From Mustelus asterias (Eukaryota), in NCBI RefSeq assembly GCF_964213995.1, contig NW_027590122.1:930001-994000 (forward strand): a stretch of 64,000 nucleotides of DNA, written 5' to 3'. The translations under genes and the position numbers were made by a program. This document shows positions 10,980-58,210 of this stretch, piece by piece. The stretch's first letter is position 1. Each line of letters opens with the position of its first letter. A model generated the notes under the pieces. It saw only the letters and a program-made list of their open reading frames with translations, ran no database searches and was not told where the DNA came from.

Positions 10980-13900
10980 GAGAGGGAGTGATTGGAGGCA
11001 GCAGTGCTGGTGAGAGATTAATTGAATTGTTTATTTATTTAATTAGTCAGCTGGTGTGTGTTTTTTTTGGCCTTTACTTTTGCAGTAGTATTTTAAGTTT
11101 AAAGTGAAAACTGGAAGTGGGCTGCTAAGGAGTCTGGGAAGGGTTTGTTAAGCGCGCGAAGTATAAAAGGTAGGCTGCAGTATACAGCGGGCAGCGTCGG
11201 GAGCGGGCAGTGGAGTGAGTGGGAAGCAGAGTGCGAGCTATAAGGCTTTGGCTCACAGGGCTTGTGTGGGAAGCAGAGTGTGAGCTATAAGGCTTTGGCT
11301 CACAGGGCTTAGGCAGAAAGGGCGAGCAGGGGTGAGTTTAATTCATTTTTGCTGTTTCTACCTGGTACTGGCAAGGTATCTAGAGGGGATGGGTGTGCAG
11401 GCAGTGCTATGTTCCTCTTGCACTATGTTTGAGGTGAGGGATGACGACAGTGTCCCTGCTGATTACACCTGTGGGAAGTGCACCCATCTGCAGCTCCTCC
11501 AAAATCGTGTTAGGGAACTGGAGCTGGAGTTGGATGAACTTAAGATCATTAGGGATGCAGAGGTGGCCATAGACAGAAGCTTTAGGAATACAGTTACTCC
11601 GAGGAATGAAAACAGATGGGTGACGGTGAGAGGGGCTGTGAGGAAGCAGTCTGTGCAGGGATCCCCGGTGCTCGTTCCCCTTAGCAACAAGTATTCCGCT
11701 TTGGATACGGTTGAGGGGGATGACATACCAGTGGTGAGCCGCAGTGAGAGGATCTCCAGCACTGTGTCCGTCTCTGTGGCTCGGGAGGGTAAGGGGCAGA
11801 GCGGGAGGGCAATAGTTATTGGGGACTCGTTAGTTAGAGGGATAGATAGGAGGTTCTGTGGCAGCAAAAGAGACTCACCGATGGTATGTTGCCTACCGGA
11901 TGCCAAGGTCCGTGACGTCTCAGACCGTGTTTTCCGGATTCTGAAGGGGGAGGGGAAACAGTCACAAGTCGTGGTACACATTGGTACCAATGACATAGGT
12001 AAGAGAAGGGACGGGGATTTAAAGCAGGAATTTCTGGAGCTGGGCTGGAAGCTGAGAGCCAAGACAAAACATGTGGTCATCTCTGGTACGTTGCCGGTGC
12101 CACGTGATAGCGAGTTGAGGAACAGGGAGAGAGTGCAGTTAAACATGTGGTTGCAGGGATGGTGTAGGAGGGAGGGTTTCAGATACGTGGATAATTGGAA
12201 CACATTCTGGGGAAGGTGGGACCTGTACAAACAGGACGGGGTGCACCTGAACCAGAGGGGCACCAATATCCTAGGAGGGAAATTTGTTACGGCTCTTCAG
12301 GGGGGTTTAAAGTAATTAGTCAGGGGAGTGGGAAAAGGAGTTGTAGTCCAGAAGTCAGTGAGGGTGATGAGGTATTGGGGAAGGTATCAGGGTCAAGGGT
12401 GGGTACCGGTAGACAGGAAGGTGGGTTGAAGTGTGTCTACTTCAATGCAAGGAGCATCCGGAACAAGGTAGATGAACTTGGGGCGTGGATTGGTACTTGG
12501 GACTACAATGTTGTGGCCATTACGGAGACGTGGGTAGAACAAGGACAGGAATGGTTGTTGGATGTTCTGGGGTATAGATGTTTCACTAAGTCTAGGGAAG
12601 CTGGTAAAAGAGGTGGAGGAGTGGCATTGTTAATCAAGGATAGTTTAACGGCTGCGGAAAGGCACTTCGAGGGGGATCTGCACACTGAGGTTATATGGGC
12701 TGAGGTTAGAAATAGGAAAGGAGCGGTCACGTTGTTAGGAGTTTACTATAGGCCCCCAAATAGTAATAGAGATGTGGAGGAAGAAATTGCTAAGCAGATT
12801 ATGGATATGTGTGGGGGTCACAGGGTAGTTGTCATGGGGGACTTTAACTTTCCAAATATTGATTGGAACCTTTGTAGGTCAAATAGTTCGGATGGGGCAG
12901 TTTTTGTGCAGTGTGTGCAGGAGGGTTTCCTGACACAATATGTGGATAGGCCGACAAGAGGTGAGGCCACATTGGATTTGGTACTGGGAAATGAACCGGG
13001 CCAAGTGTTAGATTTGGTTGTGGGAGAGCACTTTGGAGATAGTGACCACAATTCGGTGTCTTTTGTTATTGCAATGGAGAGGGATAGGGCCGTACGGCAG
13101 GGCAAGGTTTACAATTGGGGGAGAGGTAATTATGATGCGATTCGGCAAGAATTAGGGGGCATAAGTTGGGAACAGAAACTGTCAGAGAAAGGAACTAATG
13201 AAAAGTGGAACTTTTTCAAGGAACAAATACTGGATGTCCTTGATAGGTATGTCCCTGTCAGGCAGGGAGGAAATGGCCGAGTGAGGGAACCATGGTTCAC
13301 AAAAGAGGTGGAATGTCTTGTGAAAAGGAAGAGGGAAGCTTATGTAGGGATGAGGAAACAAGGTTCAGATGGCTCGATTGAAGGTTACAAGTTAGCAAGG
13401 AATGAGCTGAAAAAGGGGCTGAGGAGAGCTAGGAGGGGACACGAGAAGTCCTTGGCGAGTCAGATCAAGGAAAACCCCAAGGCTTTTTACTCTTATGTGA
13501 GGAATAAAAGAATGACCAGGGTGAGGTTAGGGCCGGTCAAGGACAGTAGTGGGAACTTGTGTATGGAATCAGTAGAGATAGGCGAGGTGATGAATGAATA
13601 CTTTTCTTCAGTGTTCACCAAGGAGAGGGGCCATGTTTTTGAGGAAGAGAAGGTGTTACAGGCTAATAGGCTGGAGGAAATAGATGTTCGGAGGGAGGAT
13701 GTCCTGGCAGTTTTGAATAAACTGAAGGTCGATAAGTCCCCTGGGCCTGATGAAATGTATCCTAGGATTCTTTGGGAGGCAAGGGATGAGATTGCAGAGC
13801 CTTTGGCTTTGATCTTTGGGTCCTCGCTGTCCACGGGGATGGTGCCAGAGGACTGGAGAATGGTGAATGTTGTTCCTCTGTTTAAGAAAGGGAATAGAAA

Positions 13901-14834
13901 TGACCCTGGTAATTATAGACTGGTTAGTCTTACTTCAGTGGTTGGTAAATTGATGGAAAAGGTCCTTAGAGATGGGATTTACGACCATTTAGAAAGATGC
14001 GGATTAATCCGGGATAGTCAGCACGGATTCGTGAAGGGCAAGTCGTGCCTCACAAATTTGATAGAATTTTTTGAGGAGGTAACTCAGTGTGTTGATGAAG
14101 GTAGGGCAGTTGATGTCATATACATGGATTTTAGAAAGGCGTTTGATAAGGTCCCCCATGGTCGGCTTATGATGAAAGTGAGGAGGTGTGGGATAGAGGG
14201 AAAGTTGGCCGATTGGATTGGTAACTGGCTGTCTGATCGAAGACAGAGGGTGGTGGTGGATGGAAAATTTTCGGATTGGAGGCAGGTTGCTAGCGGAGTG
14301 CCACAGGGATCAGTGCTTGGTCCTCTGGTCTTTGTGATTTTTATTAATGACTTAGAGGAGGGGGCTGAAGGGTGGATCAGTAAATTTGCTGATGACACCA
14401 AGATTGGTGGAGTAGTGGATGAGGTGGACAGCTGTTGTAGGCTGCAAAGAGACATAGATAGGATGCAAAGCTGGGCTGAAAAATGGCAAATGGAGTTTAA
14501 CCCTGATAAATGTGAGGTGATTCATTTTGGTAGGACTAATTTAAATGTGGATTACAGGGTCAAAGGTAGGGTTCTGAAGACTGTGGAGGAACAGAGAGAT
14601 CTTGGGGTCCATATCCACAGATCTCTAAAGGTTGCCACTCAAGTGGATAGAGCTGTGAAGAAGGCCGATAGTGTGTTAGCTTTTATTAACAGGGGGTTGG
14701 AGTTTAAGAGCCGTGGGGTTATGCTGCAACTGTACAGGACCTTGGTGAGACCACATTTGGAATATTGTGTGCAGTTCTGGTCACCTCACTACAAGAAGGA
14801 TGTGGAAGCACTGGAAAGAGTGCAGAGGAGATTT
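10980..14834 (+). mobile_element. Young CR1-type LINE with 5'UTR, ORF1 and ORF2, truncated at its 3' end
   Basis: 5'UTR with a 47-bp tandem duplication (11219-11310) and two open ORFs. CR1 homology ends abruptly at GAGATTT 14834. Confidence 0.95.
11389..12315 (+). CDS. CR1 ORF1p: N-terminal CxxC..CxxC zinc motif, coiled coil, SGNH/GDSL esterase-like domain
   Basis: ATG at 11389. Motifs CSSC...CGKC, LQNRVRELELEL, VIGDSLVRG, HIGTND and DGVH. Confidence 0.9.
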   Translation: MGVQAVLCSSCTMFEVRDDDSVPADYTCGKCTHLQLLQNRVRELELELDELKIIRDAEVAIDRSFRNTVTPRNENRWVTVRGAVRKQSVQGSPVLVPLSNKYSALDTVEGDDIPVVSRSERISSTVSVSVAREGKGQSGRAIVIGDSLVRGIDRRFCGSKRDSPMVCCLPDAKVRDVSDRVFRILKGEGKQSQVVVHIGTNDIGKRRDGDLKQEFLELGWKLRAKTKHVVISGTLPVPRDSELRNRERVQLNMWLQGWCRREGFRYVDNWNTFWGRWDLYKQDGVHLNQRGTNILGGKFVTALQGGLK

Positions 14835-14942
14835 GGGCTCGGAGAATCAGAACCCAGACTTTATCATCCTTATCCTGTTTCTTCCTTTGCCACCACTCCC
14901 TCTGTTTTGCGGGAGGGTCGTGGGGATTCCAATCAGAACTAA
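12300..14942 (+). CDS. CR1 ORF2p (APE endonuclease + reverse transcriptase), in the -1 frame relative to ORF1, no AUG before the APE domain, C-terminus lost after 14834
   Basis: APE motifs NARS, ITETW, GDFN and SDH; RT motifs QHGF, GVPQGSVLGP and FADD. The frame is open from TTG 12195 and the first ATG is at 12801. The start coordinate is inferred. Confidence 0.85.
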   Translation, partial: GGFKVISQGSGKRSCSPEVSEGDEVLGKVSGSRVGTGRQEGGLKCVYFNARSIRNKVDELGAWIGTWDYNVVAITETWVEQGQEWLLDVLGYRCFTKSREAGKRGGGVALLIKDSLTAAERHFEGDLHTEVIWAEVRNRKGAVTLLGVYYRPPNSNRDVEEEIAKQIMDMCGGHRVVVMGDFNFPNIDWNLCRSNSSDGAVFVQCVQEGFLTQYVDRPTRGEATLDLVLGNEPGQVLDLVVGEHFGDSDHNSVSFVIAMERDRAVRQGKVYNWGRGNYDAIRQELGGISWEQKLSEKGTNEKWNFFKEQILDVLDRYVPVRQGGNGRVREPWFTKEVECLVKRKREAYVGMRKQGSDGSIEGYKLARNELKKGLRRARRGHEKSLASQIKENPKAFYSYVRNKRMTRVRLGPVKDSSGNLCMESVEIGEVMNEYFSSVFTKERGHVFEEEKVLQANRLEEIDVRREDVLAVLNKLKVDKSPGPDEMYPRILWEARDEIAEPLALIFGSSLSTGMVPEDWRMVNVVPLFKKGNRNDPGNYRLVSLTSVVGKLMEKVLRDGIYDHLERCGLIRDSQHGFVKGKSCLTNLIEFFEEVTQCVDEGRAVDVIYMDFRKAFDKVPHGRLMMKVRRCGIEGKLADWIGNWLSDRRQRVVVDGKFSDWRQVASGVPQGSVLGPLVFVIFINDLEEGAEGWISKFADDTKIGGVVDEVDSCCRLQRDIDRMQSWAEKWQMEFNPDKCEVIHFGRTNLNVDYRVKGRVLKTVEEQRDLGVHIHRSLKVATQVDRAVKKADSVLAFINRGLEFKSRGVMLQLYRTLVRPHLEYCVQFWSPHYKKDVEALERVQRRFGLGESEPRLYHPYPVSSFATTPSVLREGRGDSNQN

Positions 14943-15824: not shown

Positions 15825-16304
15825 CAGTTTAATTCTCACTCGTTCTGAGTAAATATTCTCACCAGGTCCTCTGTTGGGGCCCTGCTAAGCAGCTTTAATG
15901 GTTCATGATTGCAGAAACTGAGCAGTCACAGGAATGTGGTCAAGATAGTCCAGTCCCACAATGCCTCACATTCAATCTGCAGTCCTTCAATTATAACAGA
16001 ATATGTGGCTGTATGTAGCTGCCTCGGCCGTGGTCAACCCCAACACTGCCTTCCTGAACTGTTACAATGCCTGAGGTGTAAGTACGCCCATAGGGAGGGA
16101 TTTCCAGCTACACATTCCAGACTTTCACTCACTGTTGGTGGGTTCCAGATTGATATATTCCATTCAACCACTCCCAAGCTGAGTTATTCCAATTCCTTTA
16201 TTGTCCAGGACAATATATTCACAATATCTTTAAAACAAAAATTCAACAACCCCATTTGATTTCAGGTATTAACATATTCTGTTAGTTTGTTCTTTATTGT
16301 CAAT

Positions 16305-16595
16305 GTCAGGCTGGGGTTGTTCCTCTTGGAGCAAAGGAGGTTGAGGGTAGATTTGATAGAGGTGGACAAGATTCTAACAGGTTTAGATAAGGCGGACAAA
16401 GAAAAGCTGTTCCCATTAGCTGAAGGGACAAGGACGAGGGGGGCACAGATTTAAGGATTTGAGTCAGAGATGCAGTGGGGGATGTGAGGAAGAATATTTT
16501 GATGCAGCGAATGGTAATGACCTGGAACTCGCTGCCTACGAGGGTGGAGGAAGTGGAGACAATAAACAATTACAAAGGAAATTGGATGGGAATTT
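16305..16595 (+). mobile_element. CR1 3' fragment (duplicated at 51185-51490)
   Basis: LGLFPLEQRRLR.DLIEV-like translation. The two copies are closely similar. Confidence 0.75.
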
Positions 16596-16861
16596 GGGGG
16601 GTTTCAAACAGAAATGCTGACTAAATATCTCTGAACTTCCTCACACCCGGTCACTCTGTGATCCTTGTGAAATTTGAAACCAGGTATTCGCAACAAGACT
16701 CAAAGAGCATCAGCCCACTGGAGGCAAAGTTGTGAGACCGACCAGTCCCGCAGAAAGAAACCCTCCGACCCTCCCCATTGACCAACTGTGAGAATGAACA
16801 AAATGCAGTCCTGGATGTAATTGAGAGCAGAAACAATAACAGCAGAATCCAACCACTGGAA

Positions 16862-17536
16862 TCACTCGTGAACTCGCTGGTGTCTCAGCAGGTGGGATGA
16901 AAGACTGAATCTCTTCTCACACACAGAGCAGGTGAAGGGCCTCTCTCCAGTGTGAACTCGCTGGTGTGTCTGCAGGTGGGATGACTGAGTGAATCCCTTC
17001 TCACACTGAGAGCAGGTGAACGGTCTCTCCCCAGTGTGAATTCGCTGGTGTATCTGCAGGTGGGATGACCGAGTGAATCCCTTCCCACAGTGAGAGCAGG
17101 TGAATGGCCTCTCCCCTGTGTGAACTTGGTAGTGTGTCTGCATGTGGGCTGACTGAGTGAATCCCTTCCCACACTGAGGGCAGGTGAATGGCCTCTTCCC
17201 AGTATGAATGCGCTCATGTGCCCGCAGGTTGGATGAACAAGCGAATCCTTTCCCACACTGAGAGCAGATGAATGGCCTCTCCCCAGTGTGAGCTTGCTGG
17301 TGCCTCCACAGGCTGGATAAATGACTGAATCCCTCCCCACACTGAGAACATGTGAACGGCTTCTCCCCAGTGTGAACTCGCTGGTGTGTCTGCAGGTTGA
17401 ATGACTGAGTGAATCCCTTCCCACACTGAAAGCACGTGAATGGTCTCTCCCCAGTGTGGCTGCGCCGATGAGCTTCCAGCTCAGTTGGGTATCTGTATCT
17501 CTTCCCACAGTCCCCACATTTCCATGGTTTCTCCAT
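16862..17536 (-). CDS. C2H2 zinc-finger protein, 8 fingers, 224 aa, no effector domain
   Basis: MEKPWKC start in a CACCATGG context, 8 complete fingers, in-frame stop 13 codons upstream, splice acceptor TTTTACAG at 17888. Confidence 0.9.
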
Positions 17537-18357
17537 GGTGCAGGTGTCCTTGCCTCTGTCTTGGGTGGACAATCAGTTGAAGCCTCGTCGACACACAGAA
17601 CACGGGTACAGTCTCTACCCGCTGTGAATGGTGTGATATTTATTCAGGCTGTGTAACTGGTTAAAGCCCTTTAGTCCGTGCGCTGGAACACTCTCACTCG
17701 AGTGTGGCAGTGTGTTGGTGCTTTTCCAGTCACACTGATGTTTGAAATCTTTTCAAATCGACAGACTGGACAACCATTTCTCCTTCTAGATTCAAAGTCC
17801 GATGATATTCAGCTTCCAAGGAATATGACTCTGTCAGATCTAGACGTGACGTTTGAGATTTCGGCCTGTGATTCCTCTTTCAATATCCTGTAAAATGAGG
17901 TTACAAAAGTCATCAGTGTCAGGACAGGATAGAAATTCAGAGCAGGATTCTATTTAAAAATGAAAGTGGATGGGCGCTTGAAGGAAATATACTTTCAGGA
18001 GAATGGGGATATAGAGTGGGAATGGGACTGGAATGTTATACAGAGAGTCAGCATGGACTCGAGTTACCGAATGGATTCCTTCTGTGCTGTAATGACTTTA
18101 TGACTGGTAATGTATAACATCGCTGCAGCATTATATTACAATGCAAGAAATAATAATAAATGTATTTTATTACAGAAGCATAAAGAATGTATCTAATCTG
18201 GGTACCATATAATAACACTAGACATATCTCTGTCCTATATTAATTTACTGTCCCCTTAAATGTCAGCCATCTCCTGGGGAAAGCTGCCCTTTAATTGTGA
18301 ACATTAGGAAAAAGACCATCCTTTTAGACAGACAAATAAATGTGTCAAGTTGAGGGA

Positions 18358-18835
18358 GCAAAGGATGTTCACCAGGCTGATTCAGGGAATCACAGGACTG
18401 ATGTAGGAGGAGAGATTGACTCGGTTAGAATTGTTTTCGTTGGAGTTCAGATGAATGAGGGGGGAATCTCAAAGAGACTTATAAAATTCTACAGGTTGAG
18501 ACAGGATAGATGCAGGGAGGATGTTCCTGATGGAGTCCAGAACTGGGGGTCACAGTCTGAGGATTCAGGGTAGACCATTTAGGACGGAGGTGAGGAGACA
18601 TTTCTTCACCCAAAGAGTGGTGAGCCTGTGGAATTTATTACCACAGGAAGTAGTTGGTGCCAAAACATTGAATGTATTCAAGAGGCGGCTGGATAAAGCA
18701 CTCGGGGCGAATGGGATCACAGGTTATGGGGAAAAAGCAGGATTCGGCTACTCAGTTGGATGATCAGCCATGATTGTAATGAATGGCGGAGCAGGCTCGA
18801 AGGGCCAAATGGCCTCCTCCTGCTCCTATCTTCTA
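18358..18835 (+). mobile_element. CR1 3' fragment inside a ZNF intron
   Basis: ORF 18521..18763 (HFFTQRVVSLWN..FKRRLD) followed by the CR1 tail. Confidence 0.8.
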
Positions 18836-18849
18836 TATCAATGTCTTTA

Positions 18850-19920
18850 AGAGAGAGAGAAACCTGGGCCAACTTTTCCAGAGTCTGCAGCTTCCCTGGA
18901 TTCACTTCCTTTCCCTTCAGTTGCTGCAAGTCCCCAATTTCCCCCAGAATGAGAAAAGAATTGGAAAGGGGGAGAAAAGAAAGTGTTTTACTCACAGATG
19001 TTGGCCTCTTTTAGGTCAAAACAAAGGAACAAACTCAAGTTAAATCAGGACAAAGTAAAAGGGGCAGCTCCCCAAAAGGAGGGGGAACAGCCCGATCAGA
19101 AATCAAAGTACAAAGGAAAGAGCGAGATGTTGACCTCTTTTAAGGAAATAAGTGATAAATTAGTTATCCGCCAGAGTTCGATGTCATCTGATCGCTTGTT
19201 TGGAGAATAAAACATACTGAGGAACCTCGCTTCATCTGGGATATGACGCTGGCGTAACCCATGTCATCAAAATAACTCCCTTCCGACAGGAGGAAGTTTC
19301 AGTGCAGCTCAATCTGACTGTCACAAAGACCTGATTGGCTGGAGGACCAGAGTCCTTCCGGTCCTCCAACTCTTCCCATTGGTCAACACCCCAGCATGAA
19401 GGTCAGGAGGCGTCTACCCCGCACATGCGCAGTTTCCCCTCTCTCTTGGACATGCGCAATCCCGGGGCCGGGGGGAGGGGGAGATCACCGAGCGGCTTCT
19501 CGCTCTGGCCGGAGCCGTCAGCCGGTTGCGTGGAAACCTTGGCTCGATGTGGTGTAGGGGGAGGGGAACAATGGGTGGGGGCGGGGCTCCCGGGTCCGCG
19601 CGCCCGGGCCTGCGCACTGGAACACCATAACGTCATTGCGGAAGAGACTGATTTTTATTGGCTCATTCAGGCAGGCTCCATTGTGGACGTCACAATGCGG
19701 AAGCTCGATTGATTCAGATTCAGACTCAGTGAAACTTCCTCCTCTGGGCAACATCTGGGAGGAAATCAAATGTTTCCCCCTTTCCATTTATTTTCTCATT
19801 CTGGGGGAAATTGGGGACTTGCAGCAACTGAAGGGAAAGGAAGTGAATCCAGGGAGGCTGCAGACTCTGGAAAGATTGGCCCAGGTTTCTCTCTCTCTTA
19901 AAGATATTGACATCCTTTGC
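18850..19920. promoter_or_regulatory. Bidirectional ZNF promoter cassette 1, with inverted non-coding exon modules
   Basis: ATTGG boxes at 19334, 19378 and 19657; NRF1-like CATGCGCA; GC box GGGGCGGGG near 19578; GACGTCA plus GCGGAAG near 19686-19703. The same module lies on - at 18855-19006 and on + at 19731-19890, between divergent ZNF ORFs. Confidence 0.75.
19007..19119 (-). mobile_element. Tx1-clade LINE 3'UTR fragment
   Basis: Reverse complement matches the 3'UTR (49645-49756) of the Tx1-like ORF2 end at 49441-49632. Confidence 0.7.
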
Positions 19921-20127
19921 AGAGTTCCACATGAATTAGAATTGTCTGTACTGAATTTCTATCTTGTTTTGATAGTGATGACTTTTGTAAATTCTTTTTA
20001 CAGGATATTAGAAGGAGAGGATTTACTGATAGAAATGTCAAGATCTAACAGTCACTCAATTCATGGGAGCTGAATGTCATCGGTTTGAATCTGGAAGAAG
20101 AAACGTATAGCTGTTTGAATTGGGTGA

Positions 20128-20531
20128 CATGATGCAATGCGGTGTCGATAGAAACTGATAGCCAAGTTCCGCACACATGAGGACGGCCTCAACCTGGATA
20201 TTGGGTTCATGTCACACTATTTGTAACCCCCACAGTTGCGTGGACCTGCAGAGTTTCACTGGCTGTCTTGTCTGGAGACAATACACATCTTTTTAGCCTG
20301 TCTTGATGCTCTCTCCACTCACATTGTTTTGTTTCTTAAAGACTTGATTAGTTGTAAGTATTCGCATTCCAACCATTATTCATGTAAATTGAGTCTGTGT
20401 CTTTATATGCTCTGTTTGTGAACAGAATTCCCACTCACCTGAAGAAGGGGCTTAGAGCTCCGAAAGCTTGTGTGGCTTTTGCTACCAAATAAACCTGTTG
20501 GACTTTAACCTGGTGTTGTTAAACTTCTTAC
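20128..20531 (+). mobile_element. Penelope-like element 3' end with a 12-bp TSD
   Basis: Starts with a PLE ORF-end-like segment (KLIAKFRTHEDGLN) and contains a hammerhead. TGAATTGGGTGA occurs at 20116-20127 and at 20532-20543. Confidence 0.75.
20431..20475 (+). ncRNA. Minimal type I hammerhead ribozyme
   Basis: CAC-CTGAAGA-A-GGGGCT-TAG-AGCTCC-GAAA-GCTT-GTG: intact core, helix II, palindromic mini helix III and helix I. Confidence 0.75.
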
Positions 20532-20649
20532 TGAATTGGGTGAACCATTGGTGTGAACAGAAAAGCATCAAGGCCCGTGCAACCCGAGTGACGGTGTTCC
20601 AGTGCACGTATTGTGAAAACTGCAGGAGAGACAGAAAGACACACGGATC

Positions 20650-21516
20650 ATGGAAAAACCATGGAAATGTGAGGACTGTGAAAAGTCATTCCGTTCCCCA
20701 TCAGTGCTGGAAATTCATCGACGCAGTCACACCGGGGAGAGGCCATTCTCCTGCTCCAATTGTGGGAAAGGATTCACTCGGTTATCGATCTTGCGGACAC
20801 ACCAGCGAGTTCACACCGCGGAGAGGCCATTCACCTGCTCTCAGTGTGGGAAGGGATTCACTCAGTCATCGCACTTGCTGATACACCAGCGAGTTCACAA
20901 TGGAGAGAGGCCATTCACTTGCCCCATGTGTGAGAAGGGATTCAGCGATTCATCCACACTGCAGACACACCAGCGAGTTCACACCGGAGAGAGGCCGTTT
21001 CCCTGCTCTGTGTGTGGGAAGGGATTCAGTATCTCCGCCAACCTGCTGAGACACCAGCAACTTCATACTGGGGAGGCTTCCTTCACCTGTTTTGAGTGTG
21101 GTAAAGGATTCAGTGATTCGTCCAACCTGTTTTCACACCAGCGAACTCACACTGGGGAGAGGCCGTTCACCTGCTTACTGTGTGGAAAGGGATTTAGCCA
21201 GGCATCCAGCCTGCAGACACACCAGCGAGTCCACACCGGGGAGAGGCCGTTCACCTGCTCAGTGTGCGGCAAGGGATTCAGTGATTCATCCAACCTGATT
21301 TCACACCAGCGAGTTCACACGGGGGAGAGGCCATTTAACTGCTTTGTGTGTCAGAAGGGATTCAGTCGATTATCTAACCTGCTGACGCACCAGCGACTTC
21401 ACACTGGGGAGAGGCCGTTTGCCTGCAATGAATGTGGAAAGGGATTCACACGATCATCCCACCTGCTGAGACACCAGCAAGTTCATAAGCGATTACAAGC
21501 ATTGGATTCTGCTTAA
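20650..21516 (+). CDS. C2H2 zinc-finger protein, 10 fingers, 288 aa
   Basis: MEKPWKC start, 10 complete fingers, acceptor TTTTTACAG at 20003, family 3'UTR downstream. Confidence 0.9.
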
Positions 21517-22427
21517 TCACACCCAGGACTGAACCACATTCATTCTGACAGTTGGTGAAGTGGGAGGGTCGGAGGGTTTCTTTCTGCTGGACTGGCCAAT
21601 CTCACAACTTTGTTTCCAGTGGGCTGATGCTCTTTGAGCCTGGGAGAGCACATTTCCACTGAAATGATCCACAAAAACTGGTGAAGGATGTTTATTTAAT
21701 CCTGGATCATAAATAATGTTTTTCCTACCACCAAAGGTCGATGTAAAATAAATACATTTGTCTCTGTCCCATTGAGTCTACAGCACAGGGCCGGGCCAGT
21801 CGGCTCAATTGGTCTGTGTCAGTATTTATGCTCCACATGAGCCTCCACCCATCCCTCTTCATCTCCCCCCATCAGCATATCCTTCTATTCCTTTCTCCCT
21901 CATGTATGTATCTAGCTTCCCCTTCAATGTATTCATGCTATTCACCTCAACTGTGGTAGTGAGTTCTACAGTCTCACCACTCGCTGGTAAAGAGGTTTCA
22001 CATTAAATCCCTATTAGATTATTGAATCTCTGAAAATGCACACAGCATTTGTAACAAAAAGGATGAATTGTCAGCGCGGATAGAGATAAATGTGTGTGTC
22101 CTGATAGACATTACAGAGACTTAGCTGAAAGGTCACGGAGGCTGGGATCTAAATATTGAAGGGTATTTGACATAATGGAATGGCAGGAAGCTAGGAAAAG
22201 GTGACAGGATCTCTCCCATTAATTAATGATGACATTAGTTCAGTACAGAGCTACCACCTTAGCCTGAAAGATCAGGATGAAGGATCGGTTTGGGTCGAGA
22301 TAAGAAATGGTAAAGGTACGAGGTCTCTTGTGGGAGAATTTAATGGGCCCCTTACCTAAGTTACACTGAACTGATTTCTTTATTTTGAACATGACACTAT
22401 AATAGTATGTTTATTTATTAGTGTCAC

Positions 22428-33417: not shown

Positions 33418-34966
33418 AGTCCCCTGGGCCTGATGAAATGTATCCTAGGATTCTGTGGGAGGCAAGGGATGAGATTGCAGAGCCTTTGGCGTTGATCTTT
33501 GGGTCCTCGCTGTCCACGGGGATGGTGCCAGAGGACTGGAGAATGGCGAATGTTGTTCCTCTGTTTAAGAAAGGGAATAGAAATGACCCTGGTAATTATA
33601 GACCGGTTAGTCTTACTTCGGTGGTTGGTAAATTGATGGAAAGGGTCCTTAGGGATGGGATTTACGACCATTTAGAAAGATGCGGATTAATCCGAGATAG
33701 TCAGCACGGATTCGTGAAGGGCAAGTCGTGCCTCACAAATTTGATAGAATTTTTTGAGGAGGTAACTAAGTGTGTTGATGAAGGTAGGGCAGTTGATGTC
33801 ATATACATGGATTTTAGTAAGGCGTTTGATAAGGTCCCCCATGGTCGGCTTATGATGAAAGTAAGGAGGTGTGGGATAGAGGGAAAGTTGGCCGATTGGA
33901 TAGGTAACTGGCTGTCTGACCGAAGACAGAGGGTGGTGGTGGATGGAAAATTTTCGGATTGGAGGCAGGTTGCTAGCGGTGTGCCGCAGGGATCAGTGCT
34001 TGGTCCTCTGCTCTTTGTGATTTTTATTAATGACTTAGAGGAGGGGGCTGAAGGGTGGATCAGTAAATTTGCTGATGACACCAAGATTGGTGGAGTAGTG
34101 GATGAGGTGGACAGCTGTTGTAGGCTGCAAAGAGACATAGATAGGATGCAAAGCTGGGCTGAAAAATGGCAAATGGAGTTTAACCCTGTTAAATGTGAGG
34201 TGATTCATTTTGGTAGGACAAATTTAAATGTGGATTACAGGGTCAAAGGTAGGGTTCTGAAGACTGTGGAGGAACAGAGAGATCTTGGGGTCCATATCCA
34301 CAGATCTCTAAAGGTTGCCACTCAAGTGGATAGAGCTGTGAAGAAGGCCTATAGTGTGTTAGCTTTTATTAACAGGGGGTTGGAGTTTAAGAGCCGTGGG
34401 GTTATGCTGCAACTGCACAGGACCTTGGTGAGACCACATTTGGAATATTGTGTGCAGTTCTGGTCACCTCACTATAAGAAGGATGTGGAAGCGCTGGAAA
34501 GAGTGCAGAGGAGATTTACCAGGATGCTGCCTGGTTTGGAGGGTAGGTCATATGAGGAAAGGTTGAGGGAGCTAGGGCTGTTCTCTCTGGAGCGGAGGAG
34601 GCGGAGGGGAGACTTAATAGAGGTGTATAAAATGATGAAGGGGATAGATAGAGTGAACGTTCAAAGACTATTTCCTCGGGTGGATGGAGCTATTACAAGG
34701 GGGCATAACTATAGGGTTCGTGGTGGGAGATACAGGACGGATATCAGAGGTAGGTTCTTCACGCAGAGAGTGGTTGGGGTGTGGAATGGACTGCCTGCAG
34801 TGATAGTGGAGTCAGACACTTTAGGAACATTTAAGCGGTTATTGGATAGGCACATGGAGCACACCAGGATGATAGGGAGTGGGATAGCTTGATCTTGGTT
34901 TCAGATAAAGCTCAGCACAACATCGTGGGTCGAAGGGCCTGTTCTGTGCTGTACTGTTCTATGTTC
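33418..34966 (+). mobile_element. Young CR1 LINE, 5'-truncated, open ORF2 3' part (33438..34892) and intact tail
   Basis: 484-aa ORF nearly identical to the RT region of the 11-14.8 kb element. Confidence 0.95.
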
Positions 34967-35530: not shown

Positions 35531-36139
35531 GACTCCAGAGCCACAGCAATGTGGTTGACTCTCACCCAGCTTCTGAAATGGCCGAGCGAGCCATTCAGTT
35601 CAAGGGCAATTGGGGATGGGCAATAAATGCTGGCCCAGCCGGCAATGCCCGTGTCCCAAGGATGAATAAAAAACAACATCAGACACGTCTCTGTCCGATA
35701 TTAGTTTACTGTCCCCTTTAATATATTTCAGAAATTAGATGGGCACATGAAGGAAATAAACTTGCAGGGGAAAGGGAATATAGAAAGGGAATGGGACTGA
35801 CTGGATTGTTCTACAGAGAGTCGGCATGGATTCGAGTTACTGAATGGACTCCTTCTGCGCTGTAATGACTCAATGAGTGAAAATATATAACATAGCTTCA
35901 GTGCTACATTACAAAACAAGAAATAATAATAAACGTACTTTGTTACAGAACCATAAATATTATACCAAATCTACTATATAACAACACAAGGCATATCTCT
36001 GTCCTATATTAATTTATTGTCCTTTTAAATGTCAGCCATCACCAGGGGAAACCAGCCCTTTAATTGTGAACATTAGGAAAGGGACCTTTTAGCCAGACAA
36101 ATCAATGTGTCAAGCTGAGGGAGCAAAGGATGTCAATGT

Positions 36140-36850
36140 CTTTAAGAGAAAGAGAAACCTGGGCCAACCTTTCCAGAGTCTGCACCCTCCCTGGAGTCAC
36201 TCCGTTTCCCTTCAGTTGCTGCAAGTCAAGGCAGGAATGAGCAGCTGAACAAGCTCATTGTCCACTTCCGCATTCAGACAATGGGCGAGCTCTGATTGGC
36301 TGGAGGACCAGAACATCCGTTCCTCCAACTTTCCATTGGCCAACACCTCAGCAGCAGGTCAAAAGGTTGGCTCGCCCCGCACATGCGCATCTTCCCCTCT
36401 CCCTTGGACATGCGCAGTCCCGGGCCGAGGGAGGGGGCGATCATGACGCGGCTTCTCGCTCTGGCCGGAGCCGTCAGCCGGTTGATTGGAAACCGTGGCT
36501 GGAAGAGGTGGAGGGGGAACAATGGGTGGGGGCGGGGCTCCCGGGTCCGCACGCCCGGGCCTGAGCACTGGAACCCGGAGACGTCATCGCGGAGCAGAAT
36601 GATTCCTATTGGCTGATTTAGGCAGAGCTCTCTTATGGACGTCACAATGCGGAAGTTGTCCAAACTCCCTCTTCTGGGCAACATCTGGGAGGAAATCAAT
36701 GTTTCCCCCTTTCCATTTCTTTTCTCATTCTGGGGGAAATTGGGGACTTGCAGCAACTGAAGGGAAAGGAAGTGAATCCAGGGAGGCTGCAGACTCTGGA
36801 AAGGTTACAGATGAAGACCGGATTCAGGAACAGGACTAGGCCCAGGTATA
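36140..36850. promoter_or_regulatory. Bidirectional ZNF promoter cassette 2
   Basis: Collinear with 19330-19890. Inverted exon module at 36155-36227 (-) and 36675-36803 (+). Confidence 0.75.
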
Positions 36851-37140
36851 TTTTTGTTTCTCTCTCAAAGACATTGACATCTTTTAGTTCCCTCAGTTTA
36901 TCTGGCTAATAGGGTAGCCTCTTACCCAATGTTCACAATTCAGTTTTCCCAGAAGAGGGCTAACATTTAAATGAACTGTAAATTTGTATGGGAGAGAGAT
37001 ATGTTATTTATGATCCCATATTTTTTGACTTGAAATATACAGCAGTGTGGCTGCTTTATCAATTTCCAGTGATGCAGAGATTACAACATAGAAGGAAATG
37101 CATTTGGCAACTTAAATCCATGCTGACTCTCCGTGGTAGC

Positions 37141-45332: not shown

Positions 45333-46710
45333 AACACAATGATATTCAGGTTACAATAAATTGGCTAACTCCATCAGGTTTTGATATAATATTTGGTTTC
45401 AGTTTCCCAACTGCAAATCCTCCTCTTCTAAACCCTGTGAAATTGATTTAAAACAGAAAAAAGGAAGTGAGAGAGAACCCACAAAAACACAAAGGCAGTT
45501 TGTGAAATTGAGCTGAATGAATCTGGTCATTTGTGGGGCTGGCACTCGGAAAAAGTGATCATGAAAACTGCTGGATTGTCATAAAAACCCAGCGGGTTCA
45601 CTGATATCCTTCAGGGCAGGAAATCTGCCACACGGTCTGGACACAAGACTCTGGACACTGAGAGAGAAGATAGAGAGAAGTAGGAGAGGTCAGGGTGAAG
45701 GAGAGGGATTTTGTACATTGACAACTCAATTAGAACTTTGACAGAAAGTTTCCCAAACCCTCAACCTCCACCCACCTAGAAGGACCAGGGTAGCAACTAG
45801 ATGGGAACACCATCACCTTCAAGTTCCCCTCCAACTCACACACCACCCTGACTTGTCTGACGTCCAGTACTAAAAGAACAGAAATTTCTTTCATATAAAC
45901 ATTGGGAAGACTGAACCCATTGTCTTCAGTCCCCACTGCAAACTCCACTCCCTCGCCAGCAACTCTCTCCCTCTTCCTGGCAACTGTCTGAGGCTGAAGC
46001 AAACTGTTCACAACCATGGTAAAATATTTCACCCCAAGTTGAGCTTCCAGCCACATTGCCACATCATCATCAAGACCGCCTATTTCCACCTCAGTGCCAT
46101 TGATCAACTCTACTCCAGTCTCAGCTCCTTTGGAACTCTCATCCATTCCATTGTGACGTGAAACACAGGGGAATGGGGATACAGAGAGGGAATGGGACTG
46201 ACTGAATTGCTCCACAGAGAGTTGGCATGGATCTGAGTTGCCTATTCTATGTTGTAATGTTTCCATCACTGAAAATAGATAATGTTGATACACTGCTATA
46301 TATTTTAAGACAAGAAATAGGGAATCGTAAATAACATAGTATATACCATGTAACTACATTAAACATATCTCTCTCCCATACAAATTTACTGTTCATTAAA
46401 ATGTTAGCCCTCTCCTGAGAAAACTCCCCCTTGAATTATGAACATTGGGTAAGAGGCCATCCTATTAGCCAGATATATAAACATGTCAAAGTGAGGGAGC
46501 TAAAGGATGTCAATGTCTTGTGAGAGAAAGAAAAAGATACCTGGGCCTAGTCTTGCTCCTAATTCCGATGTTCGTCTATAACGTTTTCAGAGTCTGCAGT
46601 CTCCCTGGATTCACTTCCTTTCCCATCAGTTGCTGCAAGTCCCCAATTTCCCCCAGAATGAGAAAGGAAATGGAAAGGGGGAGACATTGATTTCCTCCCA
46701 GATGTTGCCC

Positions 46711-46795
46711 TCTTTTTAGGTCAAACCAAATAAACAAACTCAGATTAAGTCAGGCCAAAGTAAAGGGGGCAGCTCCCCAAAAGGAGGGGGAACAG
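46711..46795 (-). mobile_element. Tx1-clade LINE 3' end
   Basis: Matches 49672-49756 and 19007-19090. Confidence 0.7.
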
Positions 46796-47116
46796 TAAGT
46801 TTCACTCTGAACCTCATTGGCCAACTTCCGCATTGTGACGTCACAATGGAACCTCGCGTGAATTAGCCAATAAGAATAAGTCTGCTCCGCGGTGACGTCC
46901 TGTGGTTTCAGTGCGCAGGCCCGGGCGCGCGGACACGGGAGCCCCGCCCCCACCCATTCCCCTCCTCCTGCACCTCCTCCAGCCAAGGTTTCCAGGCAAC
47001 ATGCTGGCGGCTCCGGCCAGAGCGAGAAGCCGCTCGGTGATCTCCCCCGCCCCCCTCTCTCTACGGCGGCTGCGGCTCCAAAAAGAGATCGAGAGCGACC
47101 GCTGGCGGCAGCCGCA

Positions 47117-47244
47117 CTGCGCCTGCTCCGGACAGCTCGGCTCAGCAGCGCTCTCTGCGCCTGCTCCGGACAGCTCGGCTCAGCAGCGCTCTCTGCGCCT
47201 GCTCCGGACAGCTCAACTCAGCAGCGCTCTCTGCGCCTGCGCGC
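47117..47244. repeat. 38-bp GC-rich tandem repeat, 3 full units plus a partial one
   Basis: Unit CTGCGCCTGCTCCGGACAGCTCGGCTCAGCAGCGCTCT starts at 47117, 47155 and 47193. Confidence 0.9.
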
Positions 47245-47350
47245 TGGTCTGCCAGCTGAGGGAGTGGGGGAGGGGACTTTGCAAAATCTTCCCATCATTT
47301 TCTTCCAAGTCCCGCAGTTTGATTTGAAACAGCACAGCTTCTGTTTGTAG

Positions 47351-47554
47351 CTTCACCACAGACTCAAACTTCACCACAGACTCAAACTTCACACACAGAC
47401 TCAAACTTCACCACAGACTCAAACTTCACCACAGACTCCAACTTCACACACAGACTCAAACTTCACACACAGACTCAAACTTCACCACAGACTCAAACTT
47501 CACACACAGACTCAAACTTCACCACAGACTCAAACTTCACACACAGACTCAAAC
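47351..47554. repeat. Minisatellite with mixed 18/19-bp units, about 11 copies
   Basis: Direct repeats of CTTCAC(A)CACAGACTCAAA. Confidence 0.9.
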
Positions 47555-47914
47555 CTCCTCCTCTGGACAACATCTGTGAGGAAAACACTTTCTTTCCCCC
47601 CCCCCTGGGAAATACAGAGAGTTGTGGACTCTGGAACTGGAATTAGAGCCAAATATACTGAGGGGGGAATGTTTGTGATTTTGTGGAACCTGTTTTTATT
47701 GTCTGAGCGTTTTAAAGTTTAATTTATCCTGTCTATTCAAATACTGTTTCTTAATGCATGATTCAGTGATGTTAATTTTAGATTAATTTTTGAAGTAAAA
47801 ATTTTTTAAAATGAAACATTGTCTTTGTTTATTCCATTGGGATTTGTGGGAATTTGTTTATTATAAGGTGACCATGAGGATCGTAACAACATTGATATGT
47901 CTGGTGTTGGTGCA

Positions 47915-49440: not shown

Positions 49441-49756
49441 CCCAGGCAGCGGGCGATCGAGGGGGCCGTCCATCCTGACTGTCTGCCCCTCTACTGCGGC
49501 TACATTCACAGCCAGGTGTCCCTGGAGAGGGAGCATGCGGTGTCCACGGGCACGGTTGATGCCTTCCGTGCCCGCTGGGCACCGCAGGGGTTGGGGTGCG
49601 TTATCGACCCTGATAATCACATTTTAATTTGATGTTTTTAAGTTTCCTTTGTACTTTGATTTTTGTTCGGGCTGTTCCCCCTCCTTTTGGGGAGCTGCCC
49701 CTTTTACTTTGTCCTGACTTAATTTGAGTTTGTTTATTCGGTTTGACCTAAAAAGA
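49441..49756 (+). mobile_element. Tx1-clade (L1 group) LINE 3' end
   Basis: Reads RQRAIEGAVHPDCLPLYCGYIHSQVSLEREHAVSTGTVDAFRARWAPQGLGCVIDPDNHILI*, which resembles vertebrate Tx1 ORF2 C-termini (recalled, not searched). A T-rich 3'UTR ends in AAAAAGA. Confidence 0.65.
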
Positions 49757-52214
49757 GGCCAAGAGTTTATGGGAGTCCATCCATTATCTTTTCACTAAAC
49801 AAGCCTCCAATTTTCCTTTAAGCTCTCAAACTGTGGACTCCTCAGTCTAAACATGGGCTTCACTGCATTCTTGCTGAGGCATTTAAATGTTGGAAACACC
49901 CCTGGTTTCCAACGGTCCTCTAGGCTTCTAGTCCCACAGCTGGTTCACAGCTCCTGGTCCCACAACTGGTGGCTTCCAAGCTGACTGCAGACTGTCCGCT
50001 GAAACCAGGTCATTGATTGGAAAGGACTCAAAGGTTCCGGGGAAAAGGCAGGAGAATGGGATTGAGATTTATCAGCCATGATCGAATGGCACAGCAGATT
50101 CGATGGGCCGAATAGCCTAATTCTGCTCCTATATCTTATGGTCTAATTCTAACCAAGACTCCACCCTGAATCACATATCCCCATGGTAACAGAGACCAGG
50201 TGGAATATCTGACAGATATTTAGCTTCAAAACTAAACCCTTTTTCCTGAGGTCTGCATGAAGAATTAACCTAACAAAAACAGTACAATAATCGTCAGACC
50301 CAATGTCTCCAGCTAAAAGATCCAGCTGACCTTTTACAGTTCTTACCTCTCGAGTTTTGACTTCTTAAACCAACATGGGCCATGCTTTGTGACTGCGAAT
50401 TCCCTGAGGGTGTTTTCATCAGATTCTCAATCCAGGTTTTCCATTTTTTAAAAGCAATTCTTGCAACTAATTCATATTTCTAAAACATAGGAATTATAAA
50501 ATTAGATTTTTGTAACAAAAACAGGAAGAAATGGAAATGTATCACCTTCAAAATATCCCATTTAGAATATTACAATATACAACATGCTGTATATCTTAAC
50601 AACAGCCATGATCTTATTGAATGGTGGAGCAGGCTCAAAGGGCCAAATGGCCTCCTCCTGTTCCTAAATCCACTGTTTTCCTATGTTGATCTATCTTATA
50701 ACCTGCAATAGACATAATAATCCCTCCATTGTCCACTTGACATTCACAAGTCCAGCTTGATAACAGCACACTGCTGGGTTCCATGTCCAGGAATTCAGTC
50801 CACTGAAGATGGAAATTACTGCTTGCAGTCTTTTCTGACGGTTTTCTTCTTACAATAATTATAGTCCAAAGTTCCTCCTGCAAAAGGAGAGTCTTCATTG
50901 CTGTTCATTTGTGAATTTTCAAGTTCTATTTTGAAAACAGTCTGTACAGAGTTCACATTTTGAAATTTATTTTCTTCCATGTTTGTAGTTCCTCCATTGT
51001 TTAAATCCAGAGAGAATATTCCACTCAATTCCACATTGAAACTGTCTTCTTCTTGCTCAGTTATAGCTGATTCCTTTATTGTCCAGGACAATATATTCAC
51101 AATATCTTTAAAACAGAAATTAAACATTCCCATTTGATTTCAGACAGTAACATATCCCGTTAGTTTGTTCTTTATTGTCAATGTCAGTCTCGGGTTGTTC
51201 CCCTTGGAGCAAAGGAGATTGAGGGGAGATTTGATAGAGGTGGACAAGATTCTGACAGGTTTAGATAAGGTGGACAAAGAAAAGCTGTTCCCATTAGCTG
51301 AAGGGACAAGGACGAGGGGGGCACAGATTTCTTGTTTTGGGTCAGAGATGCAAGGGGGGGGGGGGGGGGAGGGAGATGTGAGGAAGAATATTCTGATGCA
51401 GCGAATGGTAATGACCTGAAACTCGCTGCCTACGAGGGTGGAGCAAGTGGAGACAATAAACAATTAAAAAGGAAATTGGATGGGCATTTGGGATGTTCCA
51501 AACAGAACGAAGAACAAAGAAAATTTTGTTTTCTTTAAAGAAAACAAAAAAAAGAACAAAGAAAATCCATCAAGACATCATTTGACTGAGTTTGGCAGAA
51601 AGGGACCTACACAGGGTTGGAGTCGGTGGGGTTTGGCGGGGGGATCTCTCCACCGGTTGGGGATATACCAGGTACAGACGATGATGGCTGTGGTTGTTGG
51701 AGGTCAGTCATCACTGCAAGGGTCACTGCAGGGTTCATCTAAAACTCTGCTGGCCATGTTTAAACTCACATTAAGTGTTATTCCACTATCACCCTTGTGC
51801 ACGATGATCCACCCAGTAAAGCAACAACTTAACATTAAAATTCTCATCCTTGGTTTCAAATCACTCCATGACCTTGCCTGTCCCAATATCTATAATCTCC
51901 TATCAGCCCCACAACCCTCAATATATTACACGACTCTAATTCTGGTCTTTAGTTTGTCCCTGACCTTGCTTCACCATTGCAAGCTCTACCTTCAGTTGCT
52001 TAGGCTCCAACCTCTGGAATACCATCCCTACACGTCTCCAACTCTCCACCTCGCTTTACTCCTTTAACACACCCCTTAAAATCTACCACTTTGACCAAAC
52101 TTTTGGTCATCTAACCAAATATCTTCTTTGTGGCTCAATGTCATACTTTATTTTACAATGCTCCTTGGATGTTTTATTACTTTCAGGCGCTATATAAATA
52201 TATTTTGTTGTTCC

Positions 52215-53740
52215 TCGTGTCTCCTGGGCCTAATCATTTTCAGCGGCTTCATTAATTACCGTCTCCCCACCGTAGGGTCGGAAACGGGGATGTTCACTGA
52301 TGATTGCAGTGTATATGACCATTCACAACTCTGAATACTGAAGCTGCCCGCATGCAGCGCAGGACCAGGACAACATTCAGGTTGGAGCTGATTGTCAATT
52401 CATACTGACACCACATAATTATCAGGAAATATCTATTTCCAGCAAGAAAATCGAACCATCTTCCCATGATATTCAATGGCATTACCATCAGTGAATGCCC
52501 CACCAGCAATAACTTTGGGGTTACCATTGACCAGTCATTTAAATACTGAGGTTACAAGAGCAGATCAGAGGTTGGGAGTTTTGTGGCAGGTTACTCACTT
52601 AATGACTCCCCAAAGGCTTGCCATGATTCACAAGGTATAAATCAGGAGTAAGGGGGAATATTCTTTACCTGGATGAGTGTATCTGCAACAATTTTGTAGA
52701 TCCTATCCAGGACAAAGTAGCCCGCCTGATCAGCATCTCAAATACCACCTTAAACATTCACTCTCCACCATTAGCCCACAATGGTGGCAGTGTATCCCAC
52801 TGATTAGATGCACTGCAAGAAATCACCAAGGCTGTTTTCACAGCATGTTCCAAACCCTAACTTCTACCACTTGAAAAACAAGTGCAGCCAGCGTATGGGA
52901 ATGCCACCATCTGCAAATTGTACTCCACATCACACACCATTCTGACTTGAAAATCAATCACCATTCCTTCTCTGTCACTGCATCAAATTCCTGGAACTCC
53001 CTAACACCGTTGTGGGTATACCTACACCAGATGGATTGCAGCGATTCAAGAAAGTGGCTCACTTTCTTCACAAGGGCAATCAGTGATGCACAATGAATGT
53101 TGGCCTTGCCAGTCACATTCACATCCCCTGAAAGAATAAAAAAAAAATCCTCATCCCTGGTATCATTCTCAGTCATGAGTACTGCAATTATCAATGAACA
53201 GCTCCGCTTTCGACTTTATGATGGGGGAGGGTCATTGGTGGAGCAACTGAGGATGGATGGGCCTCGGACACTACCCTGGGGCTGAGATGATTGGCCTCCA
53301 ACAACCGCGATCATCCTCCTCTGTGCGGGATGTGGCTCTCGCCGGTGGAGAGTTTCCCCCTGATTCCCATTGACTTCAATGTTAATTGGGTTGCTTGATG
53401 CCACGCACAGTCAAATGCTGCCTTGACGTCAATGGCAATCACTCCAACATCACCCAGTTCAACTCTTTTGTCCATGTTTGGACAAAGGCTGTAAATGAGG
53501 CAGGAGGTGAGTGGTCCTCGGTGGAACCCAAAATGAGCATCAGTGAGCAGGTTATTGCTGTATAAATGCTGCTTGATCGCACCGTTGGCAACAACATCTT
53601 CCATCATTTTGCTGATGAGCGAGACTCGAGACATTGGAGGGCAGTTGGCCAGTTTGGATTTTTCCTTATCCATTGCCTTCAGCTGTTTATTGATATCCCT
53701 TGAAGTGAATCGAATTGGCTGAAGATGGGCATCTGTGATA
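52215..53740. mobile_element. Old LINE fragments: 3' end on + (52215-53147) and an RT fragment on - (53210-53740)
   Basis: MFTDDCSV and IDVKAAFD remnants. The A-tailed 3' end is shared with the second SINE family. Confidence 0.65.
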
Positions 53741-53864
53741 GTAGGGACCTCAGGATGGATAATCCATATGGAGAGATTAGAGAGGCTGGAATTGCACTCT
53801 ATAGAGCAGGAAAGGTTAAGGAAAGATTTAATAGAGATATTCAAACTTTTGAGAGGTTTTAGTC

Positions 53865-54862: not shown

Positions 54863-55102
54863 TTCTGACTGAATATCTCTAAACTTCCTAACACTCTGTC
54901 ACTCTGTGATCCTTGTGACATTTGAAATCAGGTATTCACAAAAAGACTCAAAGAGCATCAGCCCACTGGAGGCTGAGACCAGCCAGTCCAGCAGAAAGAA
55001 ACCCTCCGACCCTCCCCATTGACCAACTGTGAGAATGAACAAAATGCAATCCTGGATGTAATTGAGAGCAGAAACAATAACAGCAGAATCCAACCACTGT
55101 CA

Positions 55103-55777: not shown

Positions 55778-56242
55778 GGTGCAGGTGTCCTTGCCTCTCT
55801 CTTGGGTGGACAACTAGTTGAAACTTCGTCCACACACAGAACAAGATTACAGTCTCTACCCGCTGTGAATGGTGTGATATTTATTCAGACTGTGTAACTG
55901 GTTAAAGCTCTTTAGTCAGTGCACTGGAACACTCTCTCTCGAGTGTGGCAGTGTGTTGATGCTTTTTCACTCACACTGACATTTCAAATCTCTTCAAATC
56001 GACAGACTGGACAATCATTTCTCCTTCTGGATTCAAAGTCCGGTGATATTGAGGTCCCAAGGAATACGACTCTGTCAGTTCTAGACGTGATGTTTGAGAT
56101 TTCGGCCTGTGATTCCTCTTTCAATATCCTGGAAAATGAGTTTACAAAAGTCATCAGTGTCAGTACAGGATAGAAATTCAGAACAGACAATTTCTATGGA
56201 ACATTCTTTCCTCTCTCATTCCCCAAAAGCTCTCTCCCCATT

Positions 56243-57630: not shown

Positions 57631-57639
57631 GGTTGAAGA

Positions 57640-58210
57640 GAGAGAGAGACCTGGGGCAACCTTTGCAGAGTCGGCACATTCCCTGGATTCACTTCCTTTC
57701 CCTTCAGTTGCTGCAAGTCCCCAATTTCCCCCAGAATGAGAAAAGAAATGGAAAGGGGGTTGAAGAGAAAGTGATTTACTCACAGATATTAGCGACAGGA
57801 GGAAGTTTGAGTCTGTCTGAAGATCAATCTTCATTCACACAAAGCCCGCGCTCTGATTGGCTGGAAGACCAGAGTCCTTCCAGTCCTCCAACTCTTCCCA
57901 TTGGTCAACACCTCAGCAAGATGATCAGAGGGTGGGTTCTCCCCTGCACACGGGGCGGGGCTCCCGGGTCCGCGCGCCCGGGCCTGGAAGGTGGAGACAT
58001 CAACACGGAGCAGAGTGATTCCTATTGGCTGATTCAGGCAGGGTTCCATTGTAACGTCACAATGCGGAAGTTGTCCAATGAACTTCAGAGTGAAACTTCC
58101 TCCTCTGGGCAACATCTGTGAGTAAATCAATGTTTCCCCCTTTCCATTTCTTTTCTCATTCTGGGGGGAATTGGGGACTTGCAGCAACTGAAGGGAATGA
58201 AGTGAATTTG
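57640..58210. promoter_or_regulatory. ZNF promoter cassette 4 (internally deleted core)
   Basis: Inverted exon modules at 57650-57810 (-) and 58090-58207 (+). The CCAAT boxes, GC box and AACGTCACAATGCGGAAG are retained. Confidence 0.7.

Follow-up and report, generated by a model that had tools for sequence, protein, structure and literature searches.

Mirrored arms in a shark zinc-finger cluster as probable front ends of paralogous genes around a likely bidirectional promoter

Two inverted arms in a zinc-finger (ZNF) gene cluster of the shark Mustelus asterias are probably the homologous front ends of paralogous ZNF genes, with what is likely a bidirectional CpG-island promoter between them. 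The cluster probably expands as gene pairs are copied in segments and exchange partners. The arms belong to a stretch of 64,000 nucleotides (contig NW_027590122.1, positions 930,001 to 994,000 of the forward strand; here called the window and numbered from its first letter), which carries seven C2H2 finger arrays among LINE fragments in a genome of 3.68 Gb. An original prediction made from the letters of the window held that one module points outward on both sides of a conserved core. This layout is borne out by self-comparison, which aligns the left and the right arm in opposite orientation with 89.0% identity over 172 columns (E 3.5e-60; Table 1). As a control, minus-strand self matches at E<1e-3 occurred in 3 of 50 Markov-resampled copies of 17901-20700. 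Both flanking finger-only frames are intact (8 and 10 fingers). Their arrays match Pfam zf-C2H2 and zf-H2C2_2 and consist of tandem fingers with conserved linkers.

Table 1. Features of the cassette under study, its flanking genes and the other cassettes of the window
Feature	Position	Strand	Remark
Left (A-side) fingers-only C2H2 ZNF coding sequence, 8 fingers	16862..17536	-	open frame
Left last exon, 5' part	17537..17887	-	relic coding, closed before fingers; predicted acceptor 17888
Intron 2 sequence	17960..18368	-	common to many family members
LINE 3' fragment inserted in left intron 2	18370..18830	.	matches other LINE copies of the window
Left arm, type A	18835..19006	-	exon 1 end and GTGAGT donor 18995-18990
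Left arm, predicted intron, 72 nt	18995-18924	-	splicing predicted
Left arm, predicted exon 2	18923 to 18874 or 18864	-	predicted
Insertion in left exon 1	19007..19283	-	outside core
Predicted bidirectional promoter core	19284..19745	.	from composition and promoter words
Right arm, type B	19746..19913	+	GGGAGG at 19757 where the donor would be
Right arm, intron-1 homologue, 68 nt	19757-19824	+	likely retained
Right arm, exon-2 homologue	19825 to 19874 or 19884	+	
Right last exon, 5' part	20004..20649	+	relic coding; predicted acceptor 20003
Interspersed repeat of ~405 nt within right last exon	20128..20531	.	missing from sister copies
Right (B-side) fingers-only C2H2 ZNF coding sequence, 10 fingers	20650..21516	+	open frame
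Second cassette	36130..36880	+	left arm without intron 1; right arm type B
Third cassette, reversed	46502..47600	-	B arm points left, retroelement tail in exon 1
Fourth cassette	57633..58207	+	A arm without insertion; core shortened

The core (462 nt) has a GC content of 0.59 and a CpG o/e of 0.69, compared with 0.35 for the window; such a value is reached by 2.9% of 460-nt windows, which places the core in the top 3%. With consensus strings that we assume for these motifs, we detected CCAAT boxes (three), NRF1-like words (two), one GC box and CRE-like and ETS-like words. The same scan found no TATA word in the core, and none of the four cores of the window showed a ZNF143-linked word. The promoter words on the B side are conserved. 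Predicted exon-1 ends lie at 18996 (-) and 19756 (+) and the homologous exon-1 starts at ~19300 and ~19720; the 5' ends of the two opposite-strand genes, as predicted positions, are thus within ~1 kb of each other, as in bidirectional promoters. The core also combines the CpG richness, the lack of TATA words and the NF-Y-, NRF1- and GABPA-type words of vertebrate bidirectional promoters. Judged from these features, it likely resembles a vertebrate CpG-island promoter, with predicted activity in both directions. The GC-rich core of the original prediction holds for this segment but not for the whole space between the arms, which also includes sequence inserted into the left exon 1 (19007-19283).

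Self-comparison also recovers the further cassettes that had been expected at 36.1-36.9, 46.5-47.6 (reversed) and 57.6-58.2 kb. The second (36.13-36.88 kb) matches the core and right arm with 83% identity over 550 nt, the far arm of the third is a partial exon 1 only, and the B arm of the fourth combines GTGAGT with another downstream body, called Y. Outside the left arm, GTGAGT donors lie at 57783-57778 (-) and 58118-58123 (+); apart from the right arm, GGGAGG occurs at 36687 and ~46694 (-), and GTGAGG at ~47576. Each copy has a minus-strand ZNF to its left, as predicted, with arrays at 16868, 31164, 44465 and 55109. The predicted plus-strand ZNF or remnant to the right of the first three copies is equally present, as the intact frame of Table 1 and as remnants at ~39.6-40.0 kb and ~48.2 kb. 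The left genes of cassettes 1 and 4 (16178-17945 and 51055-56186) are sister copies with 88.5% identity, and the right halves of these cassettes have different gene bodies. In the far arm of the third cassette (47350-47560), a short exon-1 word is tandemly expanded with a unit of ~15-17 nt, and a three-copy repeat of ~30 nt at ~47110-47240 adjoins it.

Outside the window, the module is likewise tied to ZNF genes. An exact 34-mer from the module has 769 matches in the genome, and its control has none. The first 100 listed matches cluster on three contigs (C12, C23 and C71), with one match on C21. Among 40 loci taken at even steps from these first 100 listed matches, 28 have a finger array on the same strand within 5 kb downstream and two have one on the opposite strand; with ZNF last-exon acceptors included, 35 of the 40 have a ZNF feature in this range. 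Upstream of the same 40 matches lies a divergent array in 18 cases and a same-strand array in three, and within 1.5 kb of 13 of them lies an outward partner module. The picture was similar in a census of three contiguous stretches picked inside known clusters, 664 kb in total, where 33 of 35 modules point at a ZNF array or acceptor. Homology runs outward past the arms through intron 2 to the last-exon acceptor. Because of this linkage and this outward homology, we read the module as the front end of a ZNF gene and not as a terminal repeat. It is predicted to be the non-coding leader (exon 1 end, intron of ~70 nt, exon 2) of a very large family of fingers-only C2H2 ZNF genes.

The arms fall into types. 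Sorting 79 anchored module copies by their upstream sequence gave 32 copies of type A, 23 of type B, 15 with a retroelement tail and 9 that stayed unclassified. GTGAGT is found in 27 of the 32 A arms and 11 of the 15 tail-bearing arms and in a single B arm; the B arms mostly carry GGGAGG (15 of 23) or GTGAGG (5). The donor difference between A and B is pronounced (p=1e-9), and the predicted intron 1 is usually 72 nt long in A and 67 nt in B. The original prediction had described the GTGAGT donor as present in some modules and mutated in others. Both states do occur where it placed them, but they reflect a fixed difference between arm types rather than scattered mutation. By this pattern, the missing donor is an inherited property of the B half, so B transcripts likely retain intron 1. 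A particular last exon, the K type, occurs in 15 of 29 typed A-side genes and in none of 11 typed B-side genes, a bias to the A side that fits two old lineages. Its complete absence behind B promoters also speaks against a simple flip of the core between the arms.

Pairs of genes appear to have been copied as units and also recombined. We found 33 outward pairs, of which 25 have fingers on both sides plus a B word; 19 of these 25 came from loci chosen for likeness to the right arm of the window. Distances were computed on finger regions, since insertions distort full matrices. By this measure 23 of the 25 pairs fall into four subfamilies (6, 8, 4 and 5 members), where near-identical copies may be uncollapsed haplotypes and rows are not independent. 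Within a subfamily, the left gene, the core and the right gene each lie within ~5% (8% for one right gene), which indicates that the pair was copied whole. Between subfamilies, right genes are mostly 0-7%, cores 2-17% and left genes 16-25% apart. One B gene with its core adjoins four A-side genes that are 16-25% apart, so partners have apparently been exchanged. Homology of at least 90% to the window stops in the left intron 2 (18382) for one subfamily and at the left arm (18835) for another. Among the 79 copies, promoter halves and the gene bodies behind exon 2 (X or Y) combine as A-X (23), A-Y (3), B-X (11) and B-Y (11). Since both halves occur with both bodies, at least one crossover in the shared block is needed. 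Within each of two left-gene subfamilies, the insertion at 20128-20531, which we take to be SINE-like, is present in some copies and absent from others, a further sign of exchange between halves.

How common pairing is can be read from the census, which contains 55 arrays of at least three fingers. An outward partner within 1.5 kb was found for 14 of the 35 modules, and 11 of the 35 have no partner, opposite promoter half or divergent gene within 6 kb. A module lies upstream of 23 of the 55 arrays. Adjacent arrays are divergent in 19 cases, convergent in 17 and tandem in 16, and the strand alternates between neighbours in 36 of 52 (p=0.004). Head-to-head pairing is therefore a real tendency, but not a rule, in a partly decayed cluster. 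A-type halves also occur on both sides of one promoter, at three loci (L054, L060 and L068) and near 898-899 kb of G000:C90, the contig from which the window comes. In these A-A promoters, one arm is truncated a few bases into exon 2, at an identical point.

The leader is strongly conserved. The profile was taken from 13 census modules of one type, since selection by the exact 34-mer biases it; the census modules, too, were found by similarity, and this inflates their conservation. Counted in 20-nt bins from the first base of exon 2, seven of the eight bins from -80 to +80 reach 91-97% identity and the remaining one 86%; identity is 81-83% from +80 to +160, 72-77% to +220 and 66-72% past +200. 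Among 47 arrays, the first three fingers share 73% identity, with 66% at third codon positions. Within pairs, identity is 86-98% between the arms and 78-84% between the finger regions.

Inverted arms of ~170 nt around a conserved interior are also what terminal inverted repeats of a non-autonomous DNA transposon (MITE) look like, and the copy number is high: a first look gave 1596 candidates for the module and 1265 for the core, figures that are not copy numbers. We give this reading practically no credence. Matches are concentrated in ZNF regions, arms mostly occur singly, homology extends past the arms as far as intron 2 and the ZNF exon, pairs differ in the length of their arms (97 to 216 nt), and no target-site duplication is evident by eye at the outer ends in the window. 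The paired fixed-end repeats, target-site duplication and gene-independent dispersal of a MITE were thus not found. The original prediction had named a module lying mostly away from ZNF genes, as an ordinary transposon repeat would, as the case against itself; this was not observed, and the ZNF linkage of 35 of the 40 sampled matches rules a DNA transposon out. Another reading accepts the genes but lets exon 2 encode a conserved N-terminal effector peptide, comparable in a shark to KRAB or FiNZ. Most copies do keep one exon-2 frame open, and this frame is in phase with that of the relic in the last exon. Changes in exon 2 (2/6/2 and 22/18/10 by codon position) are not enriched at third positions, however, and at least 4 of 31 copies are frameshifted. 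In all 38 candidate last exons, the relic frame ends upstream of the fingers. Pfam gave no match to an accessory domain in the frame that spans the right arm (the FiNZ profile lay outside this search), and a protein search, in itself a weak one, returned 124 candidates with none at E<=0.01. With no sign in Pfam, codon bias or the closed relic frame of an N-terminal effector derived from upstream exons, as KRAB and FiNZ genes have, an effector peptide is very unlikely. From these comparisons the leader appears non-coding today and possibly coded in the past. The 5' parts of the last exons (17537-17887 and 20004-20649) are decayed coding sequence, and their closure in 38 of 38 cases suggests that the family has lost a longer N-terminus. 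It is improbable, too, that the promoter is active on the A side only with the B arm as its decaying copy. The canonical donor is missing in 22 of the 23 B arms and several B-side genes of the window are remnants, but the B donor state is a stable type rather than scattered decay, the B gene of the window keeps its intact 10-finger frame and the B-side promoter words are conserved. Contigs of presumed RNA runs argue weakly in the same direction. No run recorded as RNA contains the stretch. We compared unstranded contigs from four runs guessed to be RNA, from three studies of other organisms, with 16600-21700. Contigs of three of the four runs cover the module including the B-type intron-1 start, with a 1-nt gap at 19768. 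The ZNF family and its leader exist in those other organisms. Among the best 15 of 339 joints listed for these unstranded contigs, none was a splice joint in either arm. Summed contig depth, to which arms and paralogues cross-map, is high over the arms in three runs and near zero at 19165-19335. We did not count it for divergent starts because of this cross-mapping, because the 18994-19164 bin is a retroelement tail and because strandless contigs carry no starts.

The most serious competitor of our preferred reading, which we still consider clearly the less probable, is that the leader owes its identity to gene conversion throughout the family, at a recombination hotspot centred on the promoter, and is itself under little selection. 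Identity drops gradually outward from the module, so that the range from +80 to +200 fits conversion tracts equally well, and the halves are mixed in all four ways. The leader lacks codon bias, the module shows no fold signal (z 0.11 compared with Markov-resampled controls), and an Rfam search of the module gave no match at E<=1. What speaks against conversion is that arms of the same cassette are no closer than arms of different cassettes (0.940 and 0.940; 11 cassettes, p=0.32) and that the A and B donor states remain distinct directly beside the shared block. The same equality leaves arm-to-arm conversion within a cassette unsupported. Conversion across the family keeps some weight because of the gradual fall-off and the discovery of modules by similarity, and selection on a shared expression element is favoured over it only modestly. 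The original prediction itself, in its strict form, let the cluster expand only as fixed, co-regulated pairs that stem from one ancient inverted duplication. Part of this stands. The alternation of strands, the existence of whole-pair subfamilies in which recent duplicates carry both genes and a Mantel correlation between left and right genes (rho 0.28, p=0.004, on rows that are not independent) all agree with growth by pairs. Fixed pairs do not stand: 21 of the 35 census modules are unpaired, partners have been swapped, which weakens the strict form already, and A-A promoter layouts exist too. We consider this form unlikely, while a single ancient inverted duplication may still lie at the origin of the layout.

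Returning to paralogous front ends around a common promoter, we propose the following mechanism. Pairs would have been multiplied by segmental copying, and partners swapped through ectopic recombination. The A gene would splice its 72-nt first intron and a non-coding exon 2 of 50-60 nt, the B gene would mostly keep intron 1 unspliced, and translation would begin in the last exon. Selection on a shared expression element would be the main reason why the leader of ~160 nt is conserved, and the leader would double passively as a crossover point; the layout as a whole would trace to an old inverted duplication. A bolder version, which we offer tentatively and regard as doubtful, makes the leader a selected family-wide cassette joint. 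It would then serve as a common expression signal for hundreds of effector-less ZNF genes and also as their preferred crossover site, reshuffling halves and arrays into new divergent pairs. If this were true, cartilaginous fish would have in this joint an inbuilt source of diversity for their ZNF repertoire. Beyond this speculation, the cassettes show how a very large ZNF family is put together in a vertebrate lineage that has received little study, with leaders of two types and a common core but without an effector exon. Across hundreds of genes the non-coding leader is conserved more strongly than coding third positions, and it therefore offers a handle for testing the joint switching or silencing of the family and its reshuffling.

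Type IV collagen genes also lie head to head as paralogues, following an inverted duplication and later duplication of the pair. They form three stable pairs with co-assembling products and went through no mass expansion or partner exchange; in both of these respects the shark ZNFs differ. The closest published analogue is the silkmoth chorion locus (PMC4639761). There, the A and B branches of a superfamily are paired head to head on common promoters of a few hundred nucleotides and have multiplied as pairs, of which there are 44 in a set of 127 genes; the promoters are conserved, and pseudogenes and gene conversion occur as well. The shark cluster shares the two paralogous branches, seen in its arm types and last-exon bias, but most of its genes are not in pairs that duplicate as units, since 14 of 35 modules are paired and partners are exchanged between subfamilies; copying of whole pairs is confined to young subfamilies. 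Chorion genes encode eggshell structural proteins from TATA promoters with measured stage-specific expression (PMC4639761). In contrast, the shark pairs consist of DNA-binding ZNFs with a TATA-less CpG core between non-coding leaders that mirror each other; they exist in hundreds of copies and often exchange partners. Human divergent promoters are enriched for GABPA, NRF1, NF-Y and YY1 sites (PMC3082894), and the shark core resembles them in its predicted starts less than 1 kb apart, its CpG richness and its NF-Y-, NRF1- and ETS/GABPA-type words. In the RecQ examples of bidirectional promoters (PMC2688522), the partners are unrelated, whereas the shark partners are paralogues. The lineage-specific KRAB-ZNF and cyprinid FiNZ-ZNF genes (PMC10547256) are similar in forming clusters of hundreds of fast-turnover tandem finger genes, with the fingers in a single last exon behind short upstream exons; the shark genes differ from them in that no KRAB or other accessory domain was detected and the upstream exons appear non-coding. 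The main text of PMC10547256 makes no mention of shark, cartilaginous, head-to-head or bidirectional, and the zinc-finger passages of the whale shark paper (PMC8455134) do not describe such a layout. In the literature searched outside subscription journals, we found no description of such a layout in sharks. Each element is known already by itself: the bidirectional promoter, paired paralogues, birth-and-death clusters and ectopic exchange.

Mobile elements have left their mark on the cassette. The 113 nt of the left-arm insertion that lie beside the arm match the 3' end of a non-LTR element of ~7.1 kb with 87-94% identity, and the remaining 164 nt are probably a second retroelement tail. In 15 of the 79 modules, exon 1 carries short 3' tails of this element. 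Three such elements are stacked head to tail in exon 1 of one A-type arm (L106-L108, G000:C23:4001600-4022700); they bear a reverse transcriptase, and tRNA-Val-like sequence is present at both internal junctions. From its motifs, we take the element to be of the Tx1 type. The same 3' end occurs in the window at 49643-49762, away from any detected module. The LINE fragment in the left intron 2, presumably CR1, is missing from several paralogous cassettes. A nearly full-length LINE, which we assume to be CR1-type as well, lies at 11284-14942 with open frames of 343 and 915 amino acids, and its reverse transcriptase region is 98% identical to a copy at 33418-34517.
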